A stretch of 64,000 nt of DNA from the NCBI GenBank assembly GCA_019420305.1, contig JAHZHL010000005.1:13480-77479 (forward strand), written 5' to 3'. A program made the position numbers and the translations under genes. Origin of the DNA: Bacillota bacterium. GTDB lineage: Bacteria; Bacillota; Clostridia; Peptostreptococcales; Anaerovoracaceae. The notes below the pieces were generated by a model, which saw only the letters and a list, made by a program, of their open reading frames with translations, was not told the origin of the DNA and made no database searches. This document shows positions 9,840 through 28,400 of this stretch, one piece after another (the stretch's first letter is position 1; each line of letters begins with the position of its first letter).

Positions 9840-9852
9840 TTTCTCAAAAGAC

Positions 9853-9895
9853 AAAGGCATGGGAGCGGAAATCCGAGGTTCCCATGTCTTTTGTA
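9853..9895 (+). terminator. rho-independent terminator of the pyr operon
   Basis: aaaggcatggga ... tcccatgtcttt stem followed by a T-rich tail. Confidence 0.7.
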
Positions 9896-10042
9896 TTAGG
9901 GAGAAAAGTCGGAGCCCTCGGAACGGGCAGGAATTATGTGCCCAATATACAAAATAGAGGGATTGGCTACAATACGGACAAAGAACCGGTGATACCGATG
10001 GTTCCTCTATGGGAAATTTATCGAAACAATGAGAAAATTTTC

Positions 10043-10071
10043 TTGATTCCTGGAAAGTAACAGACTATAAT
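10043..10071 (+). promoter_or_regulatory. candidate promoter, TTGATT-17 nt-TATAAT
   Basis: Hexamers at 10043-10048 and 10066-10071, about 60 nt upstream of the methyltransferase start. Confidence 0.55.
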
Positions 10072-10129
10072 TAGAAAAGTAATTTTTTGAAATGACAGGA
10101 AAGGCTCTCTTTTTTATTGAGGAGGAATT

Positions 10130-11329: not shown

Positions 11330-11520
11330 AGAATTGCAGATAAAAATATTCCGAACGTGAACGCCTGCAGAGTGGAACTTATGGCCGAACGTCGATGGGT
11401 GATTCTGGAAACGGAGTCGCCTCCCGCATTTGGAAAGGAATCAGAAATACAAGCATAGCTAAGACGTTTAGCTCAGATATGCGATGCTCTGAAACAGGCT
11501 CTTTCACGAATACAGGGGAA
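11330..11520 (+). promoter_or_regulatory. structured 5' leader of unknown class ending in an intrinsic terminator (11489-11520)
   Basis: Long untranslated region before the ATG at 11556. It has a direct repeat CCGAACGT (11341 and 11374), the hairpins ggag-ucgc-cucc and agctaa-gacgt-ttagct, and a terminal stem ctctttc/ggaagag followed by TTTTTTT. Confidence 0.4.
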
Positions 11521-11555
11521 GAGTTTTTTTGTGTATTTAGGGGCGAGATAGAAAT

Positions 11556-13298
11556 ATGAAAATGGAGAAAAGAAAAGAATTAAAAAAACGGGCAGGCAGA
11601 GCGGGAGCTTTGCTGCTGATTTTTGTTATGCTGTTGGCCATGTCCGGGTGCAGGGAAAGTATGGTGATTCAGGAGATCATTTATGATCAGGCTTCCAAAG
11701 ATATTGACTTTCAGAATCAAATGAAGCTGGCGAAGAACAATGAAAACAGCCAGAAAAAAGATAAAACGCTGCCGAGGCAGAAAAATGACAAGACGGACAA
11801 GAAAGCGGATATCAAGCATCAGGCATCCAAAAAGGGAAAGAAAGATAATAATGGCGAAGCGCCGAATACAACACATAACCGCAATTCGAAAAATAATACG
11901 AAAAATGACAGCAATGGCACAAAACCGGGAAAAAGCGGAGAGAAGGAACAGGCTTCGGAGGATGACAGCAGCGCGGGGGCTTCCAACAATCCGAATGACA
12001 GGCAGATATACGACGGAAACGGAAATGTCGTTGATCTTCCGGAAGAGGTGAATTCTGTCGTAGTAACGGGAGACGCGGCTTCGCTGATCCAGATGATGGG
12101 AGGAAAAGATATTGTAAGTGGAAGCTCCAGTAGTTTTACGAATAATTCTTTGGCTCAAGAAGTATTCGGATTGAGCAATAAAACAAAAACGCTGTGGGAT
12201 GGAGATGGAGATACAGCAATGTCTTCTTCGAATTTTAATCAGCTGCTGGCAATGAAACCGGACGTATGTGTGTATGTCAGCGGGCAAAATAGCTTCAGCG
12301 GAAGTCAGCTTGCCACATTGAAAAAGAAAAAGATTGCCTGTGTGGTGCTGCCAAGGTTCAATACAGCAGACAATATTCAGGATGCGGTGAATGTGGCGGC
12401 GGAGATGATCGGAGACCGCAGTGATGAAGACGGGGGAGTGAACGCGAAAGACAAAGCGGAAGAATATGAAAGGTACTGCAGAAATTTAGTATCCGAGGTA
12501 AAAGGAAAGACAGGACTTTTTACCTGGAATAATACGGATTTTAATAATGACTATGATAGCACAAAACAAAAGAAAACGGCAAACAGTACAGCGAAGGACG
12601 GACAGTATACGTTATATGTTTCACAGTGGGAAGACTGCACCTATAAAATTGCCAGTGGAAGCACAACTTTGTTTGAGGATTCCAGTGGAGTGGCAATCTC
12701 CCCGCAGGGATACTCAAACAGCCCCCTTAGTTATTACCTGAGTACAGCCGGAGTTTGCAATAATGGAGCCAGATTTATAGAAAACGCGAAGTCAGAGTAC
12801 GCGGTAACGCCATTTAATCGCAATGTATTTAAGCACACATCAAGCGGCAGCTATTCCTTTTATGGAAGTCAGACAGAAAGCTTCACAAGGGTAAAGAGCG
12901 GCAGTACAGACGTTGCTCTGGGAGACTCGGACTTCAAGGCAATTATTGTAGACAGCAAAGCTGCCAAAAATAAAATTGAGAATTCGGAAACATGGGATTT
13001 CCATGATCGGGTTAAAGTCGGAAATGTAACGGACTTTGGCATAGAGCGAAATGGGGAACTGATTAATTCCTATATTCGTTCTAATGACTGGGATATCTAT
13101 GTGAATCCGTGCGGGGTAGAAAGCTGGACAGAAGGATCTGTGGAATCCGTTCTGGAAACAAAGTGGGCCGCATGGAAATTCCATAATGGAAGCTTTAGCG
13201 AAACAGATGTGAAAAACGAGATCAAAGAGTTTTACAAGACCTTTTATAACTATGATTTAAGCAATAGCCAGACCAATATGATTCTGGCGGGAAATTAA
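11556..13298 (+). CDS. lipoprotein: class III (Fe-chelate / corrinoid type, Peripla_BP_2-like) substrate-binding protein on a long Lys/Asn-rich tether
   Basis: Signal peptide with lipobox LLAMSGC. About 115 aa are low-complexity K/N/D/S sequence. The binding-protein pattern follows: VVVTGDAASLIQMMGGKDIVSGS ... LLAMKPDVCVYVSG ... KKKKIACVVLPRFNTADNIQDAVNVAAEMIGD ... AEEYERYCRNLV. Confidence 0.7.
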   Translation: MKMEKRKELKKRAGRAGALLLIFVMLLAMSGCRESMVIQEIIYDQASKDIDFQNQMKLAKNNENSQKKDKTLPRQKNDKTDKKADIKHQASKKGKKDNNGEAPNTTHNRNSKNNTKNDSNGTKPGKSGEKEQASEDDSSAGASNNPNDRQIYDGNGNVVDLPEEVNSVVVTGDAASLIQMMGGKDIVSGSSSSFTNNSLAQEVFGLSNKTKTLWDGDGDTAMSSSNFNQLLAMKPDVCVYVSGQNSFSGSQLATLKKKKIACVVLPRFNTADNIQDAVNVAAEMIGDRSDEDGGVNAKDKAEEYERYCRNLVSEVKGKTGLFTWNNTDFNNDYDSTKQKKTANSTAKDGQYTLYVSQWEDCTYKIASGSTTLFEDSSGVAISPQGYSNSPLSYYLSTAGVCNNGARFIENAKSEYAVTPFNRNVFKHTSSGSYSFYGSQTESFTRVKSGSTDVALGDSDFKAIIVDSKAAKNKIENSETWDFHDRVKVGNVTDFGIERNGELINSYIRSNDWDIYVNPCGVESWTEGSVESVLETKWAAWKFHNGSFSETDVKNEIKEFYKTFYNYDLSNSQTNMILAGN

Positions 13299-13306
13299 AA
13301 GAAAGG

Positions 13307-16300
13307 ATGAAATCTATGCTCAAACAAGGCGGGAAAAAAATTGTTTGTATGGTTTTGGCGCTGACGTTGATTATAACAATGGCAGTGCCGGCGGTTGGAT
13401 TCGCGGAAAGCGAGGGAACTGTAATCTCTGTTTCGAAAGAAGAGGAATTGATAAAGGCAGTAGAAGATGCTTCTTCCGGCGATACGATTCAGTTGGAAAC
13501 GGATATCCAGCTAACGGATATTTTAGAGATTTCAGGAAAAGAAGATTTGACAATCAAAGGGAAAACAGGGAAGGAAAAGCTGACCATTTCCTTGAGTTCT
13601 TACAGCAGCGCGCAAAAAAGTGAAGAAGACGCCATGATCAGCGTAACAGATTCGGCGCTTGCGATAGCAGATTTGATCATGGATGGAGAGTCCCATATGA
13701 GGGTTCTGTACATTGGAGCAAAAGGCAATGTGAATTTGAACAGCGGAGCGGTTGTTACCGGCGGATGTCTTGGGAAAAGCGGACAAAATTACGGAGCCGG
13801 AATTCTACTGACGGGGAGAAACGCGACAAACGCAGCTTCTCTGACCTTGAATAATGGAGCGGAAGTAAAGGAAAACGATGCGAACGGAGGCTATTCGATA
13901 ACCGGAATCGGAATTTGTAACTATAGGTATGGGACGATCACCGTGAACGGAGGAACCGTGAGCGGCAATGAAGACAACGCGGAAGCCAATCGGCGTAAAT
14001 TCAGCTATGGAGGGGGAATCGCGCTTGTCGGGGCAAAAGCAAATCTGATTCTGAAAAGTGGTACCATTTCCGGAAATAGCGCGCAGGGCGGAGGCGGCGG
14101 AATTTATACAACTGCCTCAGCCGGTACGGATATCCGGATCGAAGGGGGCACAGTAAGCAATAACACAACTTATACTTCGGGGGCAGGTATTTATGTCGGA
14201 GCGGCAGAGGTGACAATGTCCGGCGGCGCTGTTTCCGGAAATACAGCCGAATCCGATGAAGCGGCAACCGTATACGCTTCCGGAGGCGGCGTATATGTAG
14301 CGGGCGGATCCGATTCTCAGGGAACGTTTACGCTGACCGGCGGTACGATCGAAGATAATGAGGCAAAGTCGACGGCTAAGAGCAATGCCAATGATCCACA
14401 GATTGGCCAGGGCGGCGGAGTGATGGCGGATGGTACGTTTTTGATGACCGGCGGTGTCATTTCCGGAAATTCGGCTGTTACCACCAATTCTCTGGAGGGG
14501 ACTGCCGCCTGTGGAGGCGGGGTCAGTGTAAAAGGCGGCTCCAATCCCGGCACCTTTACCATGGCAGGGGGTACCATTACGGATAATACAGCAGACAACC
14601 AGGGTGGAGCTGTATATGTGAATAATAAATATTTGGAGCAAAGTACAATGTATCCAACAGAAAGCGCTGTTTTGCATTCCGGGAACGGGAATTTCGAAAT
14701 CAGTGGCAATATAAAGATCACAGAGAATTTGGTATCCGGAAGTGAAAATAATATTTACCTTCCAACAGGTACGGTTATTACAATTCGCGATGAATTATCC
14801 CCACAGTCTGAAGTTTATTTGGGCAGTGAAGATACCGAAATGGGTACCGTGATTGGAGAAGCGGGGATCAATTATACGATCACCGCTGCGGACGCGCGGC
14901 TTCTCAAATCCAATGAAGGAAAAAATATTTATGACAGAAATTCAGCGGGACAAATCGTAATCTCTCAGGCGCAGCAGGACAGCTACATTGATTTGCAGGA
15001 TGCCGAAATTTCGGGAGTCGAGGAGGAATATTCCTATACAGGACATGAAATTGAGCCCAATCCGGTTGTTACTCTGAAAGGGACTGTGTTAAAAGAAGGG
15101 ACGGATTATACGGTTTCTTATAATATAAAGGGTTATGACAATGTGAATGTGAGTAATTCAGAAACAAAGGCCGTTTTAAGAGTGACAGGCGCGGGAGCGT
15201 ATACCGGAACAATCACGAAAACATTTGACATTGTACCGAAAAACATAGAAGAGATAAGAATTGAGCCGATCAGTGATCGCATTGCGACAGGTGAGGCGGT
15301 GACTCCTGCGGTAAAAGCCTATAACGAAGATGTGCTGATGACAGAAGGTACTGACTTTGAAGTAGTGTATCGTAATAATACGGCAGTGGGAACTGCGTCA
15401 GCAACAATCACAGGTATTAATAATTATACCGGAACAAAAGAGATAAGCTTTAAAATCATCAGTTCAGACGGATTGACAACCGCGGATTCAGAAGAGTCGC
15501 TTCAAACTGCGATTCAAGACGCGGAAGGGAGTGAAGGGTCTCCGGAAGCAATTTATCTTCTGAAAGATATATCCCTTTCTGAAACTCTGGAAATTGCGGA
15601 AGGAAAATCGATCCGGCTGGTCGGAAACGGAGATGATACGACCATTTCCACAGAGACATCATTGGACAACCTAATTGTGGCGGAAGGAAAAATGACGATC
15701 GAAAATATGATCCTGAATTCAAATACGAAGGGAAGAGGTCTTTTTGTAGGGAAAACAGGGATCGCGACGATTAGCAACAATACGGTTATAACAGGAGGAG
15801 TTTGCACAAGAGGTTCCAGTGATGAAGAATACTCAGGCGGAGCAATTTATAACAGTGGAACCGTACTCATCGAAGCAGGCGAGCTCTGCGGAAACAAAGC
15901 GAAAAATGGAGGAGCGGTTTATAATTCGCCAGATGCGACAATTACCATTCAGTCCGCGTCGATTCATGAAAATGAAGCGGTCTCCGCGGGCGGCGGACTT
16001 TATAATGAGGGAAACGCGGAACTGAAAAAAGATGGGGTTCTTTCCAATAATATTGCTTCCTATTCACAAGGTGTTTTCAGCGCCGCAGGGGGCGGAATTT
16101 ATAATAGCGGAGAGATGGCATGCGAAGAAGGAAGCGTGATAAAGGAAAATCAGGCTGAAAAATTCGGCGGCGGAATTTATACGACAGGGAAGTTAAGCCT
16201 GCTGGGCGGCAGTATTCAGGGGAATACCACGGAAGGCGATTCTGTAGAGCGAGTGATTAACTGCGGCGGGGGAGTTTTCGTAGCTTCCGGAACGTTTACC

Positions 16301-17935
16301 ATGACGGAAGGAACCATTACGGATAACACAGCGTACTCTACGGCGGCAACAAACACCCCTTATGGTTCTGTCGGAAATGGCGGCGGCGTTTATGTAAATA
16401 ACAGTAGTGACACGGCATCTTTTGTCATGGAAAGCGGAACGATCCGCGGAAACAGGGCGGTAAGCTCAATGGAGTCCGAATATTTTGGGCATGGAGGCGG
16501 TGTTTATGTTATGGGCGGTGAAAATACTTCCGGAAACGACAATGTAAAGCCAGGAAATTTCACAATGAAGGGAGGAACGATTACGGAGAACTCCTCAACC
16601 GGTGAAGGCGCTGGCGTTTATCTGGGGAACAAAGAACATTACACCATCTCTTACACCAATTATGACTACATCGGATCTGTAAACTGTTCGATGAGTGGAA
16701 ACGCGAATGTTTTGGAAAACGCAACAGATAATGTATATCTGACATCGGGCGTAGCCATCAAGCTGCTCGGTGCCTTAAACGGCCAGACGATCGGGGTTTC
16801 TTCCGGAGGCAAGGGGACGGTAGCGGTCGCGGAAGGCAGCGGCTATACGGTGACCGAATCGGATCAAAACAAATTTAAGAGCGATGAAGCGCTGCGCACA
16901 ATCGGGCTGGATAACGAAAACAACCAGATTGTTCTTCAAGCGATTGATTTGGCAGAGCGATACTCCGTTCAACTCAGCAGCGAAACCTATTCTTATACAG
17001 GAAGGGAAATTAAACCGGAGGTAGAAGTAACGGCGAAAGACGGAACAACGCTTAAAGAAGGCAAGGACTACGAAGTGGCGTATGACGGTTCCGGAACATC
17101 CAACAAAAAGCTGATCAATGTGGGAACGAAAACCGTCACTGTAACAGGCATTGGCAATTATACCGGCACCCTGACGAAAGAGTATGAAATTGCAGCCAGA
17201 AATATTGCGGAAGTATCGGCCTCAATAAGGGATCAGTACTATACCGGAGTGGTACTTACGCCGAACCCGTCCTCGATTACTTACAATTCGATAACCCTTT
17301 TAAGGGGGACGGACTATAAGATATCCTACTCGAATAACCGAAATCAGGGGACTGCCAAGGTGGTGCTTACCGGTGTCGGAAATTTCAGTGGAACCAAGAC
17401 CATTACCTTTAAAATTTTCAAAAGGATTTCGAATACAACAATTTCCGCGATAGCAAATAAAGCTTATACCGGAAGGGCAATCAGACCTGCTTTAACGGTA
17501 AGACATGGAAGCAGCAGGCTGAGAAGCGGTACGGATTATACTGTTCGCTATAAAAACAATGTTTCTACCGGAAAGGCAACGGTCACGATTACTGGAAAGG
17601 GATACTATAAAGGTACAAAAAGCAGAGCCTTTAAGATTGTACCCAGGAAGGCGACAGTTTCTAAGGTGCGTTCTGTGAAAAAAGGACAACTTGTCGTGAA
17701 ATGGAAACGGGATAAAAAAGCAAACGGATATCAGGTGATTGTCGCGAAAAATAAAAAATTCACAAAGGGAAAGAAAACGGCTAACATTACAAAAAATAAA
17801 ACAACTTCCAAAACCTTTAAAAAACTGACAAAAGGTAAGAAGTATTATGTGAAAGTAAGAGCTTATAAAAAAATTGACGGGAAGAAAGCGTACGGCGCTT
17901 ATAGCAAAGTAAAGAACAAAAAGGTAAAGAAGTAA
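13307..17935 (+). CDS. 1542-aa secreted protein with two right-handed beta-helix (Pmp-like GG[AG][IV]Y repeat) modules, multiple Ig-like repeats and a basic FN3-like C-terminus
   Basis: Signal peptide ...AVPAVGFAESEG. GGGIY/GGAVY/GGGVYV motifs recur. The Y(S/T)YTG..I.P...V....L.EG.DY.V.Y repeats end in TG.GNYTGT. The C-terminal segment is WKRD..ANGYQV...YYVKVRAYKK. No LPXTG motif or SLH repeats seen. Confidence 0.8.
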   Translation: MKSMLKQGGKKIVCMVLALTLIITMAVPAVGFAESEGTVISVSKEEELIKAVEDASSGDTIQLETDIQLTDILEISGKEDLTIKGKTGKEKLTISLSSYSSAQKSEEDAMISVTDSALAIADLIMDGESHMRVLYIGAKGNVNLNSGAVVTGGCLGKSGQNYGAGILLTGRNATNAASLTLNNGAEVKENDANGGYSITGIGICNYRYGTITVNGGTVSGNEDNAEANRRKFSYGGGIALVGAKANLILKSGTISGNSAQGGGGGIYTTASAGTDIRIEGGTVSNNTTYTSGAGIYVGAAEVTMSGGAVSGNTAESDEAATVYASGGGVYVAGGSDSQGTFTLTGGTIEDNEAKSTAKSNANDPQIGQGGGVMADGTFLMTGGVISGNSAVTTNSLEGTAACGGGVSVKGGSNPGTFTMAGGTITDNTADNQGGAVYVNNKYLEQSTMYPTESAVLHSGNGNFEISGNIKITENLVSGSENNIYLPTGTVITIRDELSPQSEVYLGSEDTEMGTVIGEAGINYTITAADARLLKSNEGKNIYDRNSAGQIVISQAQQDSYIDLQDAEISGVEEEYSYTGHEIEPNPVVTLKGTVLKEGTDYTVSYNIKGYDNVNVSNSETKAVLRVTGAGAYTGTITKTFDIVPKNIEEIRIEPISDRIATGEAVTPAVKAYNEDVLMTEGTDFEVVYRNNTAVGTASATITGINNYTGTKEISFKIISSDGLTTADSEESLQTAIQDAEGSEGSPEAIYLLKDISLSETLEIAEGKSIRLVGNGDDTTISTETSLDNLIVAEGKMTIENMILNSNTKGRGLFVGKTGIATISNNTVITGGVCTRGSSDEEYSGGAIYNSGTVLIEAGELCGNKAKNGGAVYNSPDATITIQSASIHENEAVSAGGGLYNEGNAELKKDGVLSNNIASYSQGVFSAAGGGIYNSGEMACEEGSVIKENQAEKFGGGIYTTGKLSLLGGSIQGNTTEGDSVERVINCGGGVFVASGTFTMTEGTITDNTAYSTAATNTPYGSVGNGGGVYVNNSSDTASFVMESGTIRGNRAVSSMESEYFGHGGGVYVMGGENTSGNDNVKPGNFTMKGGTITENSSTGEGAGVYLGNKEHYTISYTNYDYIGSVNCSMSGNANVLENATDNVYLTSGVAIKLLGALNGQTIGVSSGGKGTVAVAEGSGYTVTESDQNKFKSDEALRTIGLDNENNQIVLQAIDLAERYSVQLSSETYSYTGREIKPEVEVTAKDGTTLKEGKDYEVAYDGSGTSNKKLINVGTKTVTVTGIGNYTGTLTKEYEIAARNIAEVSASIRDQYYTGVVLTPNPSSITYNSITLLRGTDYKISYSNNRNQGTAKVVLTGVGNFSGTKTITFKIFKRISNTTISAIANKAYTGRAIRPALTVRHGSSRLRSGTDYTVRYKNNVSTGKATVTITGKGYYKGTKSRAFKIVPRKATVSKVRSVKKGQLVVKWKRDKKANGYQVIVAKNKKFTKGKKTANITKNKTTSKTFKKLTKGKKYYVKVRAYKKIDGKKAYGAYSKVKNKKVKK

Positions 17936-17938
17936 GAA

Positions 17939-19171
17939 GTGAGTACAGGCAAAAAACAGCAGTTACAGGAAGAGAATCATTCAAAAATACAAATGCATGT
18001 CCGGCCTGGAGAGGAAAATGTATTCCAAAAGGAGCAGCTCAGGCGGCATGGAATGGACAGCCGCAGTCGGATGTTGCTGCTGATGGCAGTTTCTGCGGCA
18101 GTGGTGTACTGCCTCTCCATCATTCTTCCTACAAACTTGTTCGCCCAGACCCAGATTCTGTCACTGGCCGAATGCCTGCAGCAGGTAAGGCTCAGAGTCA
18201 GCGGACTATTTCTGGCTCTGGGAGAAAGTGGAGCGCTTAGTACGCAGTATATTCTGTTCCGTTATGGAATCGTTGCGTTGGTAGGGGCGGCATTAGCGGT
18301 CAGCGGAGCAGTATATCAGGGTTCTTTTCGCAATGCGTTGGCATCTCCAACGACTCTGGGGGTGCAGTCAGGCGGTGTACTGGGAGGAACCATTTATGTG
18401 ATGTTCTTCGCCTCTTATACTTCGGAAAATCAGACTGCTTCTCAGATTCAGGAAGGTCTGGAATCTATGAGCATTTTCGCGAGAAATGCCAGAGGATTTG
18501 CCATTCTGGCGGGATGTTTCGCGGGAGTCTTTCTGATTATAACGATTTCTAAAATTGTAGGAAAGGGTAAAGTCTCCAGTATCGCGCTGATTCTTTCCGG
18601 ATCTGTTTTTGGTTCCCTAATCAGCGGAACGATTGAACTGGTACAGTACTATCTGTTGCTTCATGATACTTATGGGACAAAAACTTATGAGCTGCGTTAC
18701 TTGATGCTGGGGACATTCGATAATGTCATATCTCTGGAGGACTTTCTGATTGTAGCAATTCCGCTGCTTACTGGGATTATTGCGGTTATGGGAATGAGAA
18801 ACCGACTAAATCTTCTGGTGTTCGGAGAGGACGAAGCCCGCTCCATGGGGATACGGGTAGAGCTGACCCGTAATATCATGGTTGGGGTTGTGACGATTCT
18901 GACTGCGGTAGTAATTTCATTCTGCGGACAAATTGGATTTGTCGGATTTATTGTGCCTCACCTGGCGCGGCGATTTGTAGGACCGGACTTCCGTTATCTG
19001 GTACCGGGTTCTGCGCTGATGGGAGCGATTTGTATGATGGTCGTTTACTATATTGCTACGGTCATCGGATATTCTTCCAATATTAATTTTGTAACCAGCC
19101 TGGTTGGAGGCTCGATTTTCCTGATTATGATTGCGAGGTTCAGAAACAGACGATATGCAGATTGGGCTTAA
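17939..19171 (+). CDS. FecCD-family ABC permease (iron-chelate / corrinoid uptake type)
   Basis: Contains NALASPTTLGVQSGGVLGG and VFGEDEARSMGI motifs and is multi-TM. The start is uncertain: GTG 17939 as listed, or ATG 18053, which gives a more typical length. Confidence 0.85.
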   Translation: MSTGKKQQLQEENHSKIQMHVRPGEENVFQKEQLRRHGMDSRSRMLLLMAVSAAVVYCLSIILPTNLFAQTQILSLAECLQQVRLRVSGLFLALGESGALSTQYILFRYGIVALVGAALAVSGAVYQGSFRNALASPTTLGVQSGGVLGGTIYVMFFASYTSENQTASQIQEGLESMSIFARNARGFAILAGCFAGVFLIITISKIVGKGKVSSIALILSGSVFGSLISGTIELVQYYLLLHDTYGTKTYELRYLMLGTFDNVISLEDFLIVAIPLLTGIIAVMGMRNRLNLLVFGEDEARSMGIRVELTRNIMVGVVTILTAVVISFCGQIGFVGFIVPHLARRFVGPDFRYLVPGSALMGAICMMVVYYIATVIGYSSNINFVTSLVGGSIFLIMIARFRNRRYADWA

Positions 19172-20282
19172 AGAAACCGAAAACTTAATAAGAGCAGAGA
19201 AACAAAACTATCGGAAAAAAATCTGGCTGCTGACGGGGATCGCACTTTTTATATTCCTGTTTTCGCTGTGTTTGAAAACAATTGAAACCGGATTTGTTTC
19301 GCCAGCAGAAGTTTTGGCCAATTATAAAGCGTGGATTCAGATCAATATGGGAAAATGGTTTGAATGGCCGGTTTACCTGCAGCGGACACAGATTATCGAT
19401 GGACTTCCATATTACTATGATTCTATCTCTCGTTTAAAAATAACGGCAATTACCTTTGGGTGCGGCATGCTTTTAGCTATGTCCGGCCACCTGTTCCAAA
19501 GTGTGTTCCGAAATCCGATTGCAGCCCCTACTATGCTAGGTGTCAACACAGGGGTTAACTTGGGAATCCTTTTTCTGGTTCTGCAATACGGCGGTCTTGC
19601 GACAGGTATGCCATATCAGAAGTATGTATATTGTTATACCGGCGCGGTGCTGATGTTGATTCTGGTTCTTGGTGTAGGAAAACTTTCCAGTGGGAAGAAA
19701 AAATTCTCTGTATTTGATCTGCTGATTGTGGGAGCCATTTTGTCTCAGGTAGTCGGCGCAGTGCGGACATATTATACCTTTAGCATGGAGAATGATGAAG
19801 TTTTGCTGCTAAATGAAATTTCCAACGCGATTACCGTCAATACAGATAATATCTCTTTTGTTTTTCTGGGGGCGGCGTTACTGATCTGTATTGTGCCTGT
19901 TTATTTCATTCGTTTTAGCTTTAATGCGGTAAGTTTTGAGAATGATGAGGCGAGAAGCTTTGGTGTGAATACAATGGCGCTGAAAGTAGGTTCATTAATA
20001 CTGGGGACCTTTATGATTACTGCGGCTATGGTTCATTGCGGCAGCGTCGGAATGGTATCACTGATTGCTCCTTTTCTCAGCCGATCGATCTTTGGCGCGG
20101 AATCGCGAAAGGTTTTTTGGGGGAATCTTCTGGTTGGAGGCACGCTCCTTGTAGTATGCAGAGATATTGCTTCCATGATCTATTTTACTTCAGAGGGTTT
20201 ACCGATTGGAACCGTTGTTGATTTTGTGGCAGTGCCAATCTTTGTAATTATACTGGTAACACAAAGGAGGGTATGGGAATGA
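19155..20282 (+). CDS. FecCD-family ABC permease (second subunit)
   Basis: Contains NPIAAPTMLGVNTGVNLG and ENDEARSFGV motifs. I chose ATG 19155, which overlaps the upstream stop by 17 nt; the track start is 19131. Confidence 0.85.
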   Translation: MQIGLKETENLIRAEKQNYRKKIWLLTGIALFIFLFSLCLKTIETGFVSPAEVLANYKAWIQINMGKWFEWPVYLQRTQIIDGLPYYYDSISRLKITAITFGCGMLLAMSGHLFQSVFRNPIAAPTMLGVNTGVNLGILFLVLQYGGLATGMPYQKYVYCYTGAVLMLILVLGVGKLSSGKKKFSVFDLLIVGAILSQVVGAVRTYYTFSMENDEVLLLNEISNAITVNTDNISFVFLGAALLICIVPVYFIRFSFNAVSFENDEARSFGVNTMALKVGSLILGTFMITAAMVHCGSVGMVSLIAPFLSRSIFGAESRKVFWGNLLVGGTLLVVCRDIASMIYFTSEGLPIGTVVDFVAVPIFVIILVTQRRVWE

Positions 20283-21061
20283 AGCTAGAGTTGCGTGATG
20301 TGGCCTGCGGTTATTCAGATAAAAAAAATATACTGGAGCATGTCAGCTTTGAGGTGAATACGGGGGAGATCTGCTGTATTCTGGGGCCGAATGGAGTGGG
20401 AAAAACAACGCTTTTTAAGACCATCCTGCGTCTGATGAAAGCCACTGGCGGAAGCATTCTTCTGGATGGAGAAGATATTTCAAAACTTTCTCCCTTTCAG
20501 ATGGCACAGGCAATGGCCTATGTTTCCCAGTATCATGTACCGCCGTTTCCCTATGTGGTAAAAGATGTAGTCATGTTGGGAAGAATCAGCAGTGTCCGCT
20601 ATTTTGGACAACCTTCCAAGCGAGATTATGAAATTGCTGAGCAGGCTATGGAAGATATGGGAATTCGGCACCTCAGGGAAGCAGTTTATACGGATATTTC
20701 CGGTGGAGAGCGGCAGCTTGTTATGGTTGCAAGGGCGTTGGCGCAGGAACCGCGCTTTTTGGTACTCGATGAGCCTACTGCAAGCCTGGATTATGGAAAT
20801 ATGGTTCGCGTGATGCAGAAGATAAAGAATCTCAGTGGGAAAGGTTATGGGATTATTATGACGACCCATAATCCGGACCAGGCATTTATGTGTGAATCCA
20901 AGGTTGCCCTTCTGCAGCGGAACGCGCCGGTAAAATTCGGAAACGCGGCAGATGTTGTAACCCGGAAAAATCTGTACGATGCTTACAAAGTCGATGTACG
21001 GGTTGTAGAATTCGCTACAAAAGAGGGAAAACGCGTAAGACTATGCGCCCCGGTTTTTTAG
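20279..21061 (+). CDS. ABC transporter ATP-binding protein (FepC/FecE/BtuD-like)
   Basis: Walker A GPNGVGKTT, signature ISGGERQ, Walker B FLVLDEPT. ATG 20279 forms an ATGA overlap with the permease stop and has better RBS spacing (aaggaggg) than 20273. Confidence 0.9.
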   Translation: MKLELRDVACGYSDKKNILEHVSFEVNTGEICCILGPNGVGKTTLFKTILRLMKATGGSILLDGEDISKLSPFQMAQAMAYVSQYHVPPFPYVVKDVVMLGRISSVRYFGQPSKRDYEIAEQAMEDMGIRHLREAVYTDISGGERQLVMVARALAQEPRFLVLDEPTASLDYGNMVRVMQKIKNLSGKGYGIIMTTHNPDQAFMCESKVALLQRNAPVKFGNAADVVTRKNLYDAYKVDVRVVEFATKEGKRVRLCAPVF

Positions 21062-21101
21062 AGAACCGATAAAAAGACATGAATCAAAGAGGAACAATAA
21101 T

Positions 21102-22085
21102 ATGAACTTAACAAAAGAAGAACTGGAATTTAGTACAAAACAGATTAATCGGATTATCAATAACATTGAAACTGTGATCATTGGTAAACGAAGCGCGGTG
21201 GAACTGGTTGTCATGGCTCTGATCTGCGGTGGCCATGTATTGATTGAAGACGTGCCGGGAGTTGGTAAGACAAGCCTTGTTTCCGCGCTGGCAAAATCCA
21301 TTGCCTGTCATTTTAAGCGGATTCAGTTTACCCCTGACATTATGCCATCGGATGTAACCGGATTTTCGATTTTCAATCAGAAAACCCGAGAATTCGAATT
21401 TCGTCCAGGGGCGGTCATCAGCAACATCGTGCTGGCAGATGAAATCAATCGCGCGTCGGCGAAAACACAGGCGAGCCTTCTGGAAGTTATGGAAGAGCGG
21501 CAGATTACAGTAGATTCCAAAACTTACCGGATGCCGGAACCGTTTATGGTATTGGCAACACAGAACCCGCTGGAATCTTTCGGGACATACCCGCTTCCCG
21601 AAGCGCAGATTGACCGTTTTCTTATAAAACTATCTATAGGCTATCCGTCTTTTGATGAAGAGGTAAAAGTCGTATCTATGGGAAAATCAGCAAAAGCAGC
21701 GATTAAGGCTGTTGTTTCAGGGCAGGATATCGTTAATCTGAGGAAAGCTTCCGAACGGGTTTATATCGATCCGTCTGTTGCCAGGTATATTGTTGAGATC
21801 GTAACTGCTACTCGAAACCATCCGGAAATTCAAATAGGAAGCAGCCCGAGAGGTGGGATTGCGTTATATGGAATCTGCCGCGCGTATGCTATGTACAGAG
21901 GAAGAAATTATGTAATACCAGATGATGTGAAAAAGCTGGCTCCCCATGTAATTTGCCATCGGATTGCGCTGACCCACGAAGCGAAAATTGATAAAAGAAC
22001 CCCGCAGCAGGTGATGGACTCGATTTTAAACAGTATTATTGTCCCCACAGGGCAGGAAACCGGCAGTAAGGAAAAGCAGGCATGA
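21102..22085 (+). CDS. MoxR-family AAA+ ATPase
   Basis: Contains GHVLIEDVPGVGKT and ADEINRASAKTQASLLEVMEERQITV, the typical AAA_3/MoxR signatures. 327 aa. Confidence 0.9.
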   Translation: MNLTKEELEFSTKQINRIINNIETVIIGKRSAVELVVMALICGGHVLIEDVPGVGKTSLVSALAKSIACHFKRIQFTPDIMPSDVTGFSIFNQKTREFEFRPGAVISNIVLADEINRASAKTQASLLEVMEERQITVDSKTYRMPEPFMVLATQNPLESFGTYPLPEAQIDRFLIKLSIGYPSFDEEVKVVSMGKSAKAAIKAVVSGQDIVNLRKASERVYIDPSVARYIVEIVTATRNHPEIQIGSSPRGGIALYGICRAYAMYRGRNYVIPDDVKKLAPHVICHRIALTHEAKIDKRTPQQVMDSILNSIIVPTGQETGSKEKQA

Positions 22086-23368
22086 AACTACAGTTGCCGA
22101 AACGATGGAAGCTTCGCAGAGCTGGAAAAAGAAAAAAGAATCCGAAAAGACGGATAATGGTAAAAAAAATTATTTTTTGCGTACTGGCAGTCGCAATTAC
22201 CGGTGTGCCCGCAGTTTTCCTTAATACGATCTACGGCTATCTGCCGGGGATCGTCGTTGTCCTGGGAATTGCGATATCATACGGATATCTGCATATTCTG
22301 AAAAGGACACTGACTTTTACAGAGTTATCGGATCTGTCAAACTGCGAAAGAGGAACTCAGGTGGAATTTTCCGTACGGATTAAGAACCGATTTTTTCTGG
22401 TTTACCCGAAGCTGGAATTGTATTTTTATATTTCGGATCTCTTCGGTGAAGAGGATACGGTTACAAAGTCCGTCATTACGCTGGCTCCAAAGGAAGTTCG
22501 CCAGTTTGACTTTTCCGTGCGATTTGATCACATCGGAACATACAGCGCCGGATTAAAGAGGATGAAGAGCTACGATCTGCTGGGATTGTTTACATATGAA
22601 CAGAAGAATCCAAAGGAATATCAGATAAATGTGGCGCCGAAAATTTTTGATGTCGCCAGCCTGCAGATTTCAAATACAACTATGACGGAGAGTCAGAAAA
22701 TGGTGATCCCCACTGTAATTGATGGCTCAGACTATGCAGGCGTAAGGGAATATGTATGGGGAGACCCGATTAAGACAATCCACTGGAAGTTGTCAGCCAG
22801 AACAGAAACCTATATGACGAAACAGTTTGAAAGTTATGGAGTGATGGGAATCAGTATTATTCTGGATTTCCTGTCCCCGGAATATGAAGCGGAAGTCCTG
22901 ATGAGCATGTTCGACAGTGTGGTGGAAACCGGACTTTCTGTCGCAGAGTACGCGGAAGAAAACGGGATGGAATATGAAATTCTATATACGGATCGTAAAG
23001 GAGAAAAGAAAAAAGCAAATACAGGCCGGCAGACCGATTATGTGCAGATGATTCAGGATATGCCGAAGATTTCTACGGATCAAAGTATTTCATCAGGAAT
23101 CGGGATTCTGCGGGAGGAATGTAACAATCTTTACTCCCAGGGAAATATCGCCTTTTGTACGGCGAACCTTACCCAGGAAGCTGTGGACCTTTTGATCGAG
23201 ATTCACAATAAAAGGAAGAATCCAATTTTGTTCCTGATGATACCAGAGCATATGAAAGAGGAAGAAAGAGAGGATTATCTGAAACCTTTAGGAAATCTGG
23301 ACAGCGCGAATGTGTTTTATTATATTCTGTCTTCTGCCAGGGAACTGGGCGGAGGTGAGAAAAAATGA
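22082..23368 (+). CDS. DUF58-family protein (vWA-like partner of MoxR) with two N-terminal TM helices
   Basis: DUF58 signature DYAGVREYVWGDPIKTIHWKLSARTETYMTKQFE. ATGA overlap with the moxR stop. Confidence 0.8.
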   Translation: MKLQLPKRWKLRRAGKRKKNPKRRIMVKKIIFCVLAVAITGVPAVFLNTIYGYLPGIVVVLGIAISYGYLHILKRTLTFTELSDLSNCERGTQVEFSVRIKNRFFLVYPKLELYFYISDLFGEEDTVTKSVITLAPKEVRQFDFSVRFDHIGTYSAGLKRMKSYDLLGLFTYEQKNPKEYQINVAPKIFDVASLQISNTTMTESQKMVIPTVIDGSDYAGVREYVWGDPIKTIHWKLSARTETYMTKQFESYGVMGISIILDFLSPEYEAEVLMSMFDSVVETGLSVAEYAEENGMEYEILYTDRKGEKKKANTGRQTDYVQMIQDMPKISTDQSISSGIGILREECNNLYSQGNIAFCTANLTQEAVDLLIEIHNKRKNPILFLMIPEHMKEEEREDYLKPLGNLDSANVFYYILSSARELGGGEKK

Positions 23369-24705
23369 AGTTCGGATATTACATAAAAAACTGCATATGG
23401 GAATGGATCCTTTGCTCTGTAATCGCCTGCAGTCTCAGCATGATTATTTTTAATGGATTTTACATCGCGGCAGATCGGCAGAGCAACTACGCGGTCATTA
23501 TTACAATGACAGCAGTGCTTACCGCAATTTGCTTCGCAGGGGCCTACAGTAAGAAAAGCGCGTGGATCGCGCTGGCTTCCGGGATCGCGGCTGCAGTTGC
23601 GGGTCTCATTCTTTTGCGCCAGTCGGAACCCCTGCGGAATGTGTTTCGGGATCAGGAGAGCAATCCTTATTTATATTTCCTGATTCTGATTCTAACTGCG
23701 CTGGCAGTCTTTTTTCTCAGTCGAACCCGGACCGGAACCGGCATCTTATTTGTAGCGGGAGCTTTCCTGACCGCGGCGATCCAGTTCCTGTATGAATCCG
23801 GCCATCTTTACGCGATGTTGCTGTTTTTATGCGGCTGTGGAACAATGTATATTTATAAGAATTATCAGAAGAACGTTTTGGGGTCGGAAACCCTGAAAAC
23901 AGCCTTTGGGAGGACTTTCGCCATTTCCACGGTCTTATGTATGATAGTTTTAGCGCTTTCTGCGGGTGTCTTTTATGGAATTGTAAAGCCGTTGGATCCA
24001 CCGAAGCAGGATCTCAAATTGATTACAAAATATATGGCGCTGGAAGTTCTGGAAAAAGTCGGAATTGCAGATACCCACATTATGAATGACAGCGAGGAAC
24101 GGACAAATAATGTAAACGATAATGAAAAGGACAGTAAACAGAAAGGTGATAGGAAGGAAGACAAGTCGGAAGGTGATCAGGAAAAACAGAAGGATGAAAA
24201 GAAAAAAGAACAGAGAAATAACCCTTCCAGGCTGGATAACTCCAAGAAAAACAAGCTGTTTTACGCGATAAAATACACGACAGAATTTCTTACTCCATTT
24301 TTATTGATTCCGTTATTTTGCTTGCTGATCGCCACAGCGATCCTGATAAAATTGTGGGTCAGACGAAGATGGTTGAAAAAAACAATGGAACAGCCGAAAA
24401 AGGAGCAGATCCTGCGAATGTATCATCTGTACCTGAAAAAATTCAGGCATCTTAAAATTCGAAAAGCCCCGGAGGAAACCCCTTTTGAATTTAAAGAAAG
24501 GGTCGCTCCACATCTTAGGGCATTTAACGAGGAAAATGTATCGTTTTCCACACTGACCGATATCTTCGTCCGGGCAAAGTACAGCGAAGCGGTTCCGGAT
24601 GAAAAGGAATATCAATGCTATTTAACGTTCCACAAGACGTTTTATAAAAACTGCAGGAAATATCTTGGGAACTTTAAATATATGTTAAAATTTTTCATTT
24701 TATAA
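23365..24705 (+). CDS. polytopic membrane protein with a C-terminal DUF4129-like domain (TgpA-like, no transglutaminase core visible)
   Basis: About 6 N-terminal TM helices, a Lys/Glu/Asp-rich linker and one more TM. The cytoplasmic tail ILRMYHLYLKKFRHLKIRKAPEETPFEF...FVRAKYSE resembles DUF4129. ATGA overlap with the DUF58 gene stop. Confidence 0.6.
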   Translation: MKFGYYIKNCIWEWILCSVIACSLSMIIFNGFYIAADRQSNYAVIITMTAVLTAICFAGAYSKKSAWIALASGIAAAVAGLILLRQSEPLRNVFRDQESNPYLYFLILILTALAVFFLSRTRTGTGILFVAGAFLTAAIQFLYESGHLYAMLLFLCGCGTMYIYKNYQKNVLGSETLKTAFGRTFAISTVLCMIVLALSAGVFYGIVKPLDPPKQDLKLITKYMALEVLEKVGIADTHIMNDSEERTNNVNDNEKDSKQKGDRKEDKSEGDQEKQKDEKKKEQRNNPSRLDNSKKNKLFYAIKYTTEFLTPFLLIPLFCLLIATAILIKLWVRRRWLKKTMEQPKKEQILRMYHLYLKKFRHLKIRKAPEETPFEFKERVAPHLRAFNEENVSFSTLTDIFVRAKYSEAVPDEKEYQCYLTFHKTFYKNCRKYLGNFKYMLKFFIL

Positions 24706-24720
24706 TGAGGAGGTTACATT

Positions 24721-26967
24721 ATGAAACTCAAAAAAAGAACGCTATCTCTTGTCATTGTGCTGACCATGGTAGCGACTCTGTTTGTGCCTATTACGGCGTC
24801 GGCGGCAGAGACTGCCACATGGGACCCGCCGACAGAGGCAATGGAGGTCGATCCAGATATCGTAAAGGTGGCGGGGCACGCCGCGAATACAACTGCAGTC
24901 CATTATCTGGGCGGCGATCTGGTGACAGCGAGATCTTCGGATCTGACAAAAGGAACGACCGAAGCCAGCAGCGCGGCAGAAAAGCTGGCGGCAGCTTCCA
25001 CAATTACGGAGCTGGGCGCTTTCGGGAGCTCTATCAACGTAAGTCCGGATCCGTACTGGTGGAATTATTTCTACAATCTGTATGATGCGGCGAATAACGA
25101 TGGAGAAAATCAGGCCCCGGCTTCCGATACAGTACAGCTGGTAAGTGCGAATCCGATGGGCGCGGATCTGACACCGGTTTCCGGGTATGAAAATCTGACA
25201 GTAAGCGGAACCGATCAGGTGCCGCATTCTGTAGGGATGAAGCCGGATGTTTTCCTCGGGATTAACGGAAGCGGAGGAAAGACATATGACGATTATCTGA
25301 TCCTTATGAAGGATTATGTGGATAACGGGGGAGACTGGAATCCGATTCAGGTGAACTATAAAGCGACTGATCTGAATGACTTTATCGAAGATATGTACAA
25401 CTTGTCCGAAGCCATTGTAAAGAGCGGCAAAGAAGGCCGATATGGAGATACCGAAGCCATCGCCAAAAATTATGAAGCATATATCAAAGGCTTGCAACTT
25501 TATGTTATGAAGCAGATTGACGATGGCAAAGTCGATAAAAAAACAGTGGCGATTGTTGACCCAGAAACATTAAGCGACGGACATTATCAGGCATATAACA
25601 GCAGTATGTCCAAGGGAACTGCGGCTTCCTGCAGAGCGGCAGAGTATGTAGAAAATACTACGAACAATATTATTGACACAGAAGGAATTGAGAATACTGG
25701 TACAGCTGCCAGTCCGCAGTATCTGGCTACAGCAGAACAGATTACGAAGGCTGATGCGATTTTTATTACGGTACAAGCACAGATCAACATGTCAGAAGAG
25801 CAGTTCGCCAGTGAACTGGCAGAGGCTGCCGGTGTGGAAGTAGAAGAGCTTCCTCCGATCTATGCCTATGATCCAAACGGAGCTTTCTCTATCCGCGCGA
25901 ACTCAGCAGAAAACTTTGTGGGAATCGGACAGTATCAGGGATTCCTGTATCCGGAAGTGATTAATCCGGTTTACGCGGCAGCTTATGTATACCAGAACTT
26001 TTATCATCTGAATGAAGCGGACTATAAGGCTTTGACGCAGTATGCTCTTTCCGAAGCTTCCCTGCCGGAAGGCTATGATGGAGCAGATACTGCAGGTTAT
26101 ACAAAAGAGTATATTGATGATCGGATTGCAGAAGGAATTCAGTACTATAAAAATAATGTAGGTACCTATGAAGACACGAAGCTGGCGCTTACCGAGGATT
26201 ATGACAGAAATATTGACAGATCGATTGATTTTTCGAGGGTAACCATCTCGGCTATCGCAAATCAGATGTATACAGGAAAAGCGCTGACACCGGCAATAAC
26301 AGTAAAAGATGGGGAAAAAGTACTGAAAAACGGAACCGATTATACAGTGACCTATCGGAATAATGTGAATAAAGGAAGAGCAACGGTAACCGTTACGGGA
26401 AAGGGAACTTATAAAGGACAAAAGACGGTTTATTTCAATATTGTAAGTAAATCCATCACAGGAGCAACCGTCTCCGCCATCGGAACCAAGACATACAATG
26501 GAAGAGTCCAGAGACCGGCAGTAACTGTAAAACTCGGAACCACGACTCTGAAAAATAATACAGACTACAAAGTTGCTTACAGCACAAACAAGAATCCGGG
26601 TAAAGCGACTGTAACCATTACAGGCGCCGGAAACTACGCCGGAACGAAAAAAGTGACCTTCAAAATTAAGCCGAAAAAAGCGACGGTAAGAAAAACAAAG
26701 ACTTATAAAAAAAGAAAGCTGAAAGTAACCTGGAAAAGAGACAGTCTTGCTACCGGCTACCAGGTAGTAGTCGGCACTAATGCGAAAGTAACAAAGAATA
26801 AGAAGGTGATCAATGTTACAAGGAATAAGACTACCAGCAAGACTTTCAAAAAGCTGAAGAGAGGCAAGAGATACTACGTAAAAGTAAGATCTTATAAAAA
26901 GGTGGATGGCAAGAAGCTTTACGGCGCTTACAGCAAGGTTAAGAGATCTGCGAAGATTAAGCGGTAA
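24721..26967 (+). CDS. secreted protein: class III SBP-like N-terminal domain fused to two Ig-like repeats and a basic FN3-like C-terminus
   Basis: Signal peptide ...VPITASAAE. SBP-like pattern GMKPDVFLGING ... NPIQVNYKATDLNDFIEDMYNLSEAIVKSGK ... AIAKNYEAYIKGLQLYVMKQ ... KKTVAIVDP ... ADAIFIT. The tail is paralogous to the end of the 1542-aa protein. Confidence 0.6.
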   Translation: MKLKKRTLSLVIVLTMVATLFVPITASAAETATWDPPTEAMEVDPDIVKVAGHAANTTAVHYLGGDLVTARSSDLTKGTTEASSAAEKLAAASTITELGAFGSSINVSPDPYWWNYFYNLYDAANNDGENQAPASDTVQLVSANPMGADLTPVSGYENLTVSGTDQVPHSVGMKPDVFLGINGSGGKTYDDYLILMKDYVDNGGDWNPIQVNYKATDLNDFIEDMYNLSEAIVKSGKEGRYGDTEAIAKNYEAYIKGLQLYVMKQIDDGKVDKKTVAIVDPETLSDGHYQAYNSSMSKGTAASCRAAEYVENTTNNIIDTEGIENTGTAASPQYLATAEQITKADAIFITVQAQINMSEEQFASELAEAAGVEVEELPPIYAYDPNGAFSIRANSAENFVGIGQYQGFLYPEVINPVYAAAYVYQNFYHLNEADYKALTQYALSEASLPEGYDGADTAGYTKEYIDDRIAEGIQYYKNNVGTYEDTKLALTEDYDRNIDRSIDFSRVTISAIANQMYTGKALTPAITVKDGEKVLKNGTDYTVTYRNNVNKGRATVTVTGKGTYKGQKTVYFNIVSKSITGATVSAIGTKTYNGRVQRPAVTVKLGTTTLKNNTDYKVAYSTNKNPGKATVTITGAGNYAGTKKVTFKIKPKKATVRKTKTYKKRKLKVTWKRDSLATGYQVVVGTNAKVTKNKKVINVTRNKTTSKTFKKLKRGKRYYVKVRSYKKVDGKKLYGAYSKVKRSAKIKR

Positions 26968-27024
26968 GCTGTAACGTTTCTTTGAGCAGAACAAACAGCG
27001 TAGTTAGTCCGTCAGAATGTGAGG

Positions 27025-27067
27025 AAACTGCGGCAGCATAAAAGCAGATGTTGCCGCGGTTTTCTTT
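27025..27067 (+). terminator. rho-independent terminator closing the nine-gene operon
   Basis: 15-bp stem aaactgcggcagcat / atgttgccgcggttt (two G-U pairs) followed by tctttat. Confidence 0.7.
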
Positions 27068-28276: not shown

Positions 28277-28400
28277 AAAGTTAACCCGCTTTTAACACAA
28301 GTGCGAATCATTTAACACAGGCTTGCTTGTATTTTACGGTGCCTGCGCATACACTTTTATTATAGAAATCGGAATGAAATATGTGAAAGTGGGGGATTTT

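Follow-up and report, generated by a model that had tools for sequence, protein, structure and literature searches.

Surveys of molybdenum (Mo) and tungsten (W) utilization count only ModABC, WtpABC, and TupABC as prokaryotic transporters, and they point out that in many organisms molybdoenzymes occur without a known transporter (PMC6147048, PMC13144720). In Haemophilus influenzae, molybdate and tungstate are bound by MolA, which serves MolBC, an ATP-binding cassette (ABC) importer of type II (PMC4031551, PMC4245157). Expression of this MolBC-A system (HI1470/HI1471/HI1472) is repressed when Mo is sufficient (PMC4031551). Regulons of riboswitches for the molybdenum and tungsten cofactors (Moco/Tuco) comprise moaABCDE, modABC, tupABC, and W/Mo enzymes (Regulski et al. 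2008, PMC2408646), and clusters of MoxR, DUF58, and TgpA-like genes have been described as well (PMC5700661, PMC8430577). Here, we analyzed a stretch of 64,000 nucleotides (nt) from a Bacillota bacterium of the Anaerovoracaceae (contig JAHZHL010000005.1, positions 13,480 to 77,479; hereafter the window, whose numbering is used for coordinates), in which an operon joins a FecCD-type importer to a MoxR-DUF58-DUF4129 triad behind a Moco/Tuco aptamer. We consider it probable that this locus is a Mo/W acquisition system built around a MolBC-A-like type II ABC importer, with an oxyanion as the most likely cargo. This assignment is based on the Moco riboswitch, a MolA-like binding protein, a flanking moeA gene, and other Mo genes near related loci. 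A sequence-only reading of the same DNA had left the ligand unassigned and had pointed to siderophore, haem, or corrinoid classes; riboswitch, binding protein, and the conserved moeA speak for Mo/W instead. A published description of this system was not found in the literature searched.

The sequence-only reading had placed a leader and terminator at 11330-11520. A terminator is indeed predicted in this region, and the leader itself proved to be a Moco/Tuco aptamer (Table 1). The match to Rfam model RF01055 scored 60.3 bits (gathering score 36, E = 5.7e-12) and spanned the full model (positions 1-135), with the P3 stem deleted. Further downstream, a hairpin followed by a U7 run was recognized from the centroid fold of 11425-11545 together with reading of the sequence. 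Because hairpin and U7 run together make an intrinsic terminator, the leader is predicted to act as an OFF switch, and an alternative anti-terminator pairing may form within it. With a P3-less aptamer and a predicted terminator-type OFF platform in front of a transporter operon, the locus is like known Moco/Tuco regulons; the transporter there is ModABC, TupABC, or WtpABC, whereas it is of the FecCD type in the window. A Moco riboswitch linked to a transporter of the FecCD/MolA type was not found in the literature searched.

Homologous aptamers were detected at the same position in seven other lineages with orthologous operons, i.e. Zhenpiania hominis, Lentihominibacter, a Clostridia metagenome-assembled genome, Eubacteriaceae, Ruminococcaceae, Acutalibacteraceae, and Oscillospiraceae. 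Aptamers also precede MolA-like operons of the simple kind, with one permease and a short binding protein, in Spirochaetia, Syntrophomonadaceae, Dehalococcoidales (as tandem copies), and on a JGI contig. Over 20 aptamers of these loci, 94.5% of cells were paired, compensatory changes occurred in 17 of 25 pairs, and none of 500 shuffles reached the covariation score, all in an alignment that was fitted to the RF01055 model and is thus biased towards that structure. Helices P1, P2, P4, and P5 were supported by covariation, and P3 was missing in all 20. Some aptamers are longer than the others (L026 5966-6111 on the minus strand, L021 4415-4569, L100 935-1091, and L085; L-numbers are labels of related loci compared with the window). 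Their classification as P3-containing was rejected, as the extra length is a longer distal P2. The P3-less class has been correlated with use of the tungsten cofactor (Regulski et al. 2008, PMC2408646). We dropped the corresponding argument for a tungsten-specific system and do not call the metal (Mo vs W), because one P3-less aptamer precedes, and controls, a xanthine-dehydrogenase-family Mo enzyme, located 4 kb from the cluster in L026. On a Geobacteraceae contig (L092 3590-4124), two Moco aptamers flank a Moco-II RNA (RF01713), with a flavin mononucleotide riboswitch 9 kb on.

The first gene of the operon encodes a lipoprotein (protein 1) with a signal peptide and a lipobox cysteine at position 32; G31-C32 is invariant in 19 homologues. 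In its AlphaFold2 (AF2) model, a disordered tether of about 115 residues (31-146, pLDDT <50) leads to a confidently modelled domain (147-580, pLDDT >90), which contains a long helix at 297-319, as in class III binding proteins. Foldseek returned 79 matches at E <= 0.001, and the best 50 of these 79 were all class III-type. The best matches were 4ovk, a Veillonella binding protein (E = 1e-13), MolA 3psa (rank 2, E = 1e-11, TM 0.73), and 4pag, with siderophore binders (such as YiuA, CeuE, and FeuA) and haem binders ranking lower. The same three structures were recovered when a sequence profile of protein 1 was compared with PDB sequences (E = 0.029 for 3psa), and alignment by hhalign to a profile of 46 simple MolA-like binding proteins gave a probability of 100% (E = 5e-40). 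From model and profiles, protein 1 is predicted to belong to the MolA subgroup of class III binding proteins and to have an enlarged domain.

A second candidate binding module is encoded by the last gene of the operon. Its product (protein 9) is secreted and consists of a binding-protein-like N-domain (residues 30-500, approximately), two immunoglobulin (Ig)-like repeats, and a very basic fibronectin type III (FN3) domain. Direct comparison of protein 9 with protein 1 by hhalign gave conflicting results, with a probability of 85% for narrower profiles and 17% for broader ones. The conflict was resolved by the profile of the 46 MolA-like binding proteins, to which the N-domain aligned over 224 columns with a probability of 97.6% (E = 3.6e-12); judged by this comparison, the N-domain is a divergent homologue of MolA-like class III binding proteins. 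The AF2 model of protein 9 had a pLDDT of 86; Ig/FN3 matches dominated the Foldseek search with the whole model, and phmmer against PDB sequences returned nothing useful. The N-domain is acidic (isoelectric point, pI, 4.2) and the FN3 domain is basic (pI 11.2). Protein 9 is probably anchored in the wall through its basic Ig/FN3 tail, a view supported by homologues elsewhere that are fused to SLH/FIVAR or choline-binding repeats as anchors instead. A protein-9-like gene is present in most related loci.

The proposal of the sequence-only reading that both putative binding domains are class III was upheld, for protein 1 by fold search and for protein 9 by profile comparison. Its picture of a wall-displayed and a lipid-tethered protein acting as a pair is a fair reading of the anatomy, the module of protein 9 being wall-anchor-like. 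Hidden Markov model (HMM) searches, as suggested there, found FecCD, AAA_3, DUF58, and DUF4129 in the respective products, but the Peripla_BP_2 model had no match in protein 1 or protein 9 in Pfam and NCBIfam, and neither protein was assigned to any binding-protein family by these scans.

Permeases, ATPase, and class III binding protein all match the parts of a type II (BtuCD/FecCD-type) ABC importer, which the locus is thus predicted to encode. Among PDB sequences, permease 1 was closest to HmuU (E = 2.8e-27) and MolB/HI1471 (E = 7.6e-27); permease 2 matched FhuB, HmuU, and MolB, and BtuC was also among the permease matches. The motifs of the ATPase are intact (Walker A GPNGVGKT, signature SGGERQ, Walker B LVLDEPT), and its best NCBIfam matches were haem, FecE, and corrinoid ATPases, all below equivalog cutoffs.

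Such families are shared by importers of quite different cargo, and the locus could be read as a siderophore, haem, or corrinoid chelate importer with a two-tier relay, the link to Mo being incidental or the cargo a Mo/W metallophore. The FecCD and FepC-like families themselves, best NCBIfam matches to BtuC, FhuB, haem, and FecE models, the appearance of YiuA, CeuE, and FeuA further down the fold search, and the presence of two binding-protein-like proteins would all fit. Nevertheless, every NCBIfam match lies far below its equivalog cutoff, Pfam detected no NEAT or other haem- or siderophore-specific domain, MoeA and MOT1 occur as neighbours, and it is the Moco aptamer that recurs in many lineages while no cobalamin riboswitch is present at the operon. 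We therefore regard a chelate importer of this kind as improbable. An importer for cobalamin or iron was rejected, given the absent B12 riboswitch and the wide margin by which the equivalog cutoffs were missed. The likeness to the Isd/NEAT haem relay and to Bacteroides BtuG/BtuH is anatomical only (outer binding module, lipoprotein, and FecCD permease). Pfam and NCBIfam scans of proteins 1, 2, and 9 found no NEAT or BtuG-like domain, and, unlike in those systems, the outer module in the window is itself a binding-protein homologue and the probable cargo is Mo/W.

With MolBC-A, the window shares the FecCD permease, the FepC-like ATPase, and the class III binding protein. MolBC-A has a homodimeric permease from a single molB gene, whereas the window would encode a heterodimer of diverged subunits with N-terminal extensions; its binding protein is a long-tethered lipoprotein with a larger domain, and control is by a Moco riboswitch. 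To the MolBC-A plan the window adds a wall-anchored second binding-protein homologue, the MoxR-DUF58-DUF4129 triad, a methyltransferase, and MoeA; its ligand is putative. The N-terminal extensions of the permeases comprise roughly 70-100 residues before the FecCD match (17939-18170 and 19155-19450); speculatively, they could be docking sites for the DUF58 and DUF4129 proteins.

Two genes outside the nine of the operon appear to belong to the system as well, so that the unit delimited by the sequence-only reading was too small. The first encodes a MoeA-like molybdopterin metal insertase, and its ATG at 27095 is preceded by a GAGGGAGG ribosome-binding site. The product matches MoeA_N and MoCF_biosynth in Pfam (E = 8e-20 and 4e-18) as well as PRK14498 (240 bits) and MoeA (144 bits) in NCBIfam, both below the equivalog cutoffs; Pyrococcus MoeA (1xi8/1wu2) was the best match in the PDB, and E. 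coli MoeA was also matched. In six lineages, a moeA-like gene lies directly beside the cluster, with the other neighbours differing; the relatives with an adjoining moeA are L008, the L009 group, L017/18, L027, and L034. MoeA genes also occur near the simple MolA-like loci L053, L066, L073, L076, L088, L089, and L098. L101 carries a MOT1-type gene for molybdate transport, with a Moco aptamer of its own, next to an operon for methyltransferase, binding protein, FecCD permease, and ATPase. Among 136 non-core neighbouring open reading frames (ORFs), no Moco-synthesis or Mo/W-enzyme family was recurrent; all that this census turned up were surface proteins of the LRR_5, LRR_8, and SLH types, radical SAM proteins, and genes of housekeeping function.

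The second gene encodes a class I S-adenosylmethionine (SAM)-dependent methyltransferase and lies upstream of the operon. In five lineages (L013/14, L017/18, L022, L025, and L026), its counterpart is part of the operon and lies between the genes for ATPase and MoxR. In Zhenpiania, it is located upstream, as in the window, and has a Moco aptamer of its own. A promoter-like TTGATTC-N17-TATAAT before the gene is kept between the window (9835-10135) and L009 (8245-8695), and the roughly 136-nt Moco aptamer of the Zhenpiania gene is precisely absent in the window, i.e. a clean riboswitch-sized indel. The wider methyltransferase family (240 matches) was found beside Peripla_BP_2, FecCD, and ATPase genes in Acetobacterium, Dehalococcoidales, and a JGI metagenome contig. 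Judged from this gene context, the methyltransferase upstream of the window operon probably belongs to the system, and its conservation points to an unrecognized chemical step in Mo/W acquisition.

Several observations on these companion genes were made in passing. A class I SAM methyltransferase family of roughly 285 aa accompanies operons for MolA-like binding protein, FecCD permease, and ATPase in L099, L100, L101, and many of L042-L098. The hosts of this pairing are Clostridia, Acetobacterium, Dehalococcoidales, Bathyarchaeota, Methanospirillum, Desulfatiglandales, and Propioniciclava, and the operons often stand under Moco aptamers. In Dehalococcoidales GCA_016933655.1 (L100 1-9034), tandem Moco aptamers are followed by Peripla_BP_2, FecCD, ATPase, and methyltransferase genes, and the same operon continues with DUF364/DUF4213, RidA, Aminotran_5, RidA, and a second methyltransferase. 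In L101, the MFS_MOT1-type gene (11984-13269, minus strand) is arranged back to back with the aptamer-controlled operon, with a MoaE gene and a cobalamin riboswitch in the vicinity.

A number of points weigh against a Mo/W oxyanion importer. The aptamer is present in only about 8 of the 25 lineages that carry the full gene set (L013, L019, L022, L027, L029, and others lack it). A strong terminator separates the operon from moeA, so that co-transcription of moeA is putative. To our knowledge, no methylation step has been described in Mo/W oxyanion uptake. The binding domain of protein 1 is about 110 residues larger than MolA, and two diverged FecCD genes, unlike MolB2, indicate a heterodimeric permease; one would sooner expect either feature in an importer of bulky chelates. 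Two FecCD genes were found in the window and in all long-binding-protein loci, and one in simple MolA-like loci. Furthermore, MolA itself is a low-affinity binder (PMC4031551).

Some of these points would be accommodated if the importer salvaged not the metal but a pterin, i.e. cyclic pyranopterin monophosphate (cPMP), molybdopterin, or intact Moco/Tuco released by anaerobes living nearby. In that case, the pterin taken up would be metalated, or re-metalated, by MoeA, with methyltransferase and MoxR module processing or protecting the labile cargo. Type II importers usually carry bulky cofactors, in keeping with the enlarged domain and the heterodimeric permease; only strict anaerobes were found as hosts, and oxygen-labile pterins could persist in them; and uptake of a metal-free pterin would fit the Moco riboswitch and the adjacency of MoeA equally well. 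Many organisms have molybdoenzymes, incomplete Moco pathways, and no known Mo transporter (PMC6147048), which could be explained in this way. Yet MolA, the closest characterized binding protein, binds oxyanions (PMC4031551), a bacterial importer of pterins or Moco is not known, and import of the intact cofactor would make MoeA unnecessary. We consider pterin salvage unlikely and retain uptake of a Mo/W oxyanion as the preferred reading.

To determine which genes travel together, we mapped the proteins of the window onto 98 fetched loci. A set consisting of a long binding protein, two FecCD permeases, and MoxR-DUF58-DUF4129 (the long form) was found in about 25 lineages of Clostridia and Coriobacteriia, usually accompanied by the ATPase and a protein-9-like gene. 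These lineages include Anaerovoracaceae, Eubacteriaceae, Lachnoclostridium, Ruminococcaceae, Acutalibacteraceae, Oscillospiraceae, Lachnospiraceae, Alkaliphilus, and Coriobacteriia; among the sources of relatives of protein 1 were Lentihominibacter, Zhenpiania, and further Anaerovoracaceae. When 1.84 billion representative proteins were searched with a profile, 312 long-form relatives were obtained at E <= 1e-30, so that the long form amounts to about 312 clusters at 50% identity. The set persists where the gene order is shuffled (L032, L034, L036, L040, L041) or the triad is divergent (L029). The triad occurs in every long-binding-protein locus with enough flank and in none of the 57 simple MolA-like loci, and for this reason we consider it integral and co-inherited. 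It is a membrane-associated module and an obligatory partner of the long-form importer subtype. The neighbourhood survey thereby also settles a doubt raised with the sequence-only reading, that the triad might stand beside ABC genes in this genome alone.

The MoxR protein is 61-89% identical across all related loci, and the DUF58 and DUF4129 genes are kept beside it in all of them. According to hydropathy, the DUF58 protein has an N-terminal hydrophobic hairpin (segments at 30-72), and the DUF4129 protein starts with about 6-7 hydrophobic segments, continues with a charged linker and one more such segment, and ends in the DUF4129 domain. The module had been called MoxR-DUF58-TgpA-like; AAA_3, DUF58, and DUF4129 bear this out, but TgpA_N remained below threshold (16.6 bits, cutoff 30) and Transglut_core had no Pfam match. 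In having the order AAA_3 MoxR, DUF58, DUF4129, overlapping stop and start codons, and a polytopic third protein with C-terminal DUF4129, the triad is like Bacillus subtilis YeaC-YeaD-YebA, Bacteroides Bat, mycobacterial Rv1479-1481, and bifidobacterial PFNA. Unlike these, it is without a transglutaminase core and is embedded in an ABC importer operon. A MoxR triad linked to an ABC importer or to Mo/W uptake was not found in the literature searched. In L008 (16047-16973), a second MoxR gene and then another ORF follow the protein-9-like gene; this may be a second triad.

As MoxR-DUF58-TgpA-like triads are widespread without transporters, the triad and the surface proteins might also form an independent envelope module, concerned with the wall or S-layer, that merely shares the transcript. 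Large variable surface proteins of the beta-helix, LRR_5, and SLH types are the most frequent of the extra neighbours, and in L029 the triad is a separate divergent unit. It is difficult to reconcile such independence with the strict co-occurrence of triad, long binding protein, and two permeases in two phyla and several gene orders, with its absence from the simple loci, and with loci in which the triad lies between the permease and ATPase genes (L034, L040-L041); in riboswitch-bearing loci it also stands under Moco control. An independent module is, in our judgement, very improbable.

One of the surface proteins is, by contrast with the triad, variable. Protein 2, described earlier as a giant beta-helix wall protein and as part of the system, combines two beta-helix-like regions of PMP repeats with Ig-like repeats and has a very basic FN3 domain (pI 10.8) at its C-terminus; the beta-helix is putative, as the PMP-repeat matches behind it are weak. 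Proteins 2 and 9 both end in an fn3 domain (Pfam), and the C-terminal 275 aa of protein 2 (Ig-like repeats and FN3) are 53% identical to protein 9. The gene is missing in L009/L015/L022, including Zhenpiania, lies upstream in L008/L027, and is replaced by genes for LRR_5/SLH proteins in L007/L034. Protein 2 is a variable accessory and not an integral part of the system.

The triad may be compared with other MoxR-type systems. CoxD and CoxE, a MoxR-type AAA+ protein and a von Willebrand factor A (vWA) protein, are required for maturation of the Mo-Cu centre in CO dehydrogenase, and further pairs of MoxR-class and vWA-like proteins in a metal-cofactor context are NorQ/NorD, CbbQ/CbbO, and the BchI/BchD chelatase motors. 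Those act on cytoplasmic enzyme or substrate targets, whereas the window has membrane partners alongside a transporter and no target enzyme in the operon. Since MoxR is soluble, the DUF58 protein has a hydrophobic hairpin, and the DUF4129 protein has hydrophobic segments, the triad may be placed at the cytoplasmic face of the membrane and act on the importer or on metal hand-off, which is the weakest step of our proposal. Tentatively, and as a possibility that we would not yet call probable, the triad could be a dedicated mechanochemical partner of the importer that either, as an ATP-driven device, assembles or gates the heterodimeric permease, or strips Mo/W from a tightly bound or thiolated extracellular form for delivery to MoeA. 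If so, this would be the first concrete physiological role for the widespread MoxR-DUF58 triads, and to ModABC, TupABC, and WtpABC the system would add a fourth route of Mo/W uptake in prokaryotes, with an unexplained SAM-dependent step.

Taking the locus as a Mo/W oxyanion importer, the following course of events can be envisaged. With enough Mo/W cofactor, the leader aptamer would bind it and the terminator would form; when the cofactor is scarce, the operon would be transcribed. The MolA-like lipoprotein on its long tether would deliver a Mo/W species, by analogy with MolBC-A most likely the molybdate or tungstate oxyanion, to the heterodimeric FecCD permease. The FepC-like ATPase would power the permease, and the MoeA-like enzyme would then insert the metal into molybdopterin. 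Further out, ligand in the wall zone may be caught by the MolA-like domain of protein 9, on its Ig spacers and FN3 tail, and handed on inward. The triad would work on the importer from the cytoplasmic or membrane side and might, for instance, serve assembly, gating, or the hand-off of metal, and the SAM methyltransferase would be a companion enzyme. FecCD-type importers under a Moco riboswitch could thus fill part of the Mo/W transporter gap; many simple MolA-like operons exist beyond the long form, and the hosts are anaerobes of gut, sediments, and bioreactors. The long form moreover places the MoxR-DUF58-DUF4129 triad in a context predicted to respond to a known ligand, which makes the triad testable by uptake assays.

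Table 1 Features of the predicted Mo/W acquisition locus in window numbering
Feature	Position	Strand	Basis
Class I SAM-dependent methyltransferase, 288 aa	10130-10996	+	Pfam Methyltransf_31/25/11
Moco/Tuco riboswitch aptamer, Rfam RF01055, P3-less class	11337-11456	+	cmscan
Expression platform (predicted)	11498-11531 (about)	+	8-bp hairpin (GCUCUUUC...GGGGAAGAGU region), then U7 run
Protein 1, lipoprotein, predicted binding protein, 580 aa	11556-13298	+	lipobox, AF2, Foldseek, hhalign
Protein 2, secreted surface protein, 1542 aa	13307-17935	+	fn3, weak Chlam_PMP/POMP_repeat matches
FecCD permease 1, 410 aa	17939-19171	+	Pfam FecCD (PF01032), 188.7 bits
FecCD permease 2, 375 aa	19155-20282	+	Pfam FecCD (PF01032), 138.8 bits
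ABC ATPase, FepC/HmuV-like, 260 aa	20279-21061	+	ABC_tran, 107.8 bits
MoxR-type AAA+ ATPase, 327 aa	21102-22085	+	AAA_3 (212.7 bits), AAA_lid_2, bpMoxR
DUF58 protein, 428 aa	22082-23368	+	DUF58, 29.9 bits (cutoff 23.4)
Polytopic DUF4129 protein, 446 aa	23365-24705	+	DUF4129, 26.1 bits (cutoff 24.8)
Protein 9, secreted, 748 aa	24721-26967	+	hhalign, AF2, pI, fn3
Terminator of the operon	27021-27066	+	19-bp hairpin with a U-rich run at its end
MoeA-like molybdopterin metal insertase, 393 aa	27095-28276	+	MoeA_N, MoCF_biosynth

The operon comprises nine consecutive ORFs on the plus strand (11556-26967), and both the ORFs and their junctions agree with the single, tightly packed unit that the sequence-only reading had described. 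The genes are separated by gaps of 8 nt (13298/13307), 3 nt (17935/17939), 40 nt (21061/21102), and 15 nt (24705/24721) or joined by ATGA overlaps at 22082-22085, the 4-nt overlap between the MoxR and DUF58 genes, and at 23365-23368. For permease 2 and the ATPase, the starts 19155 and 20279 were taken from gene calls in identical contigs, the longest ORFs beginning at 19131 and 20273; with these starts, the junctions are a 17-nt overlap and an ATGA overlap, respectively. The window sequence is also present in several gut-type metagenome assemblies. The strong terminator proposed downstream of the operon was corroborated by folding of 27021-27066 (-29.6 kcal/mol, z = -7.0), as none of 200 shuffles folded equally well. 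A simple terminator scan missed both the leader terminator and the one at the operon end, and both were recovered by folding.

The remainder of the window contains housekeeping genes only. Directly after moeA lies a gene for a fusion of a PIN domain with a PhoH-like ATPase (28323-29780), followed by the gene of a Crp-family regulator and by that of a small RelA/SpoT-domain protein. At 32762-32858, an aptamer of the glycine riboswitch family (RF00504, 55.8 bits) was detected upstream of a sodium:alanine symporter-family gene (32946-34403), and a VanW-like gene, a D-Ala-D-Ala ligase gene, a VanY-type carboxypeptidase gene, and a TetR-family gene form a row at 48233-51708. Among the related loci, the upstream flanks of L007 and L013, two distant versions of the cluster, carry the thiamine biosynthesis genes thiC, thiM, thiE, and thiD a few kb away, which is probably a coincidence.

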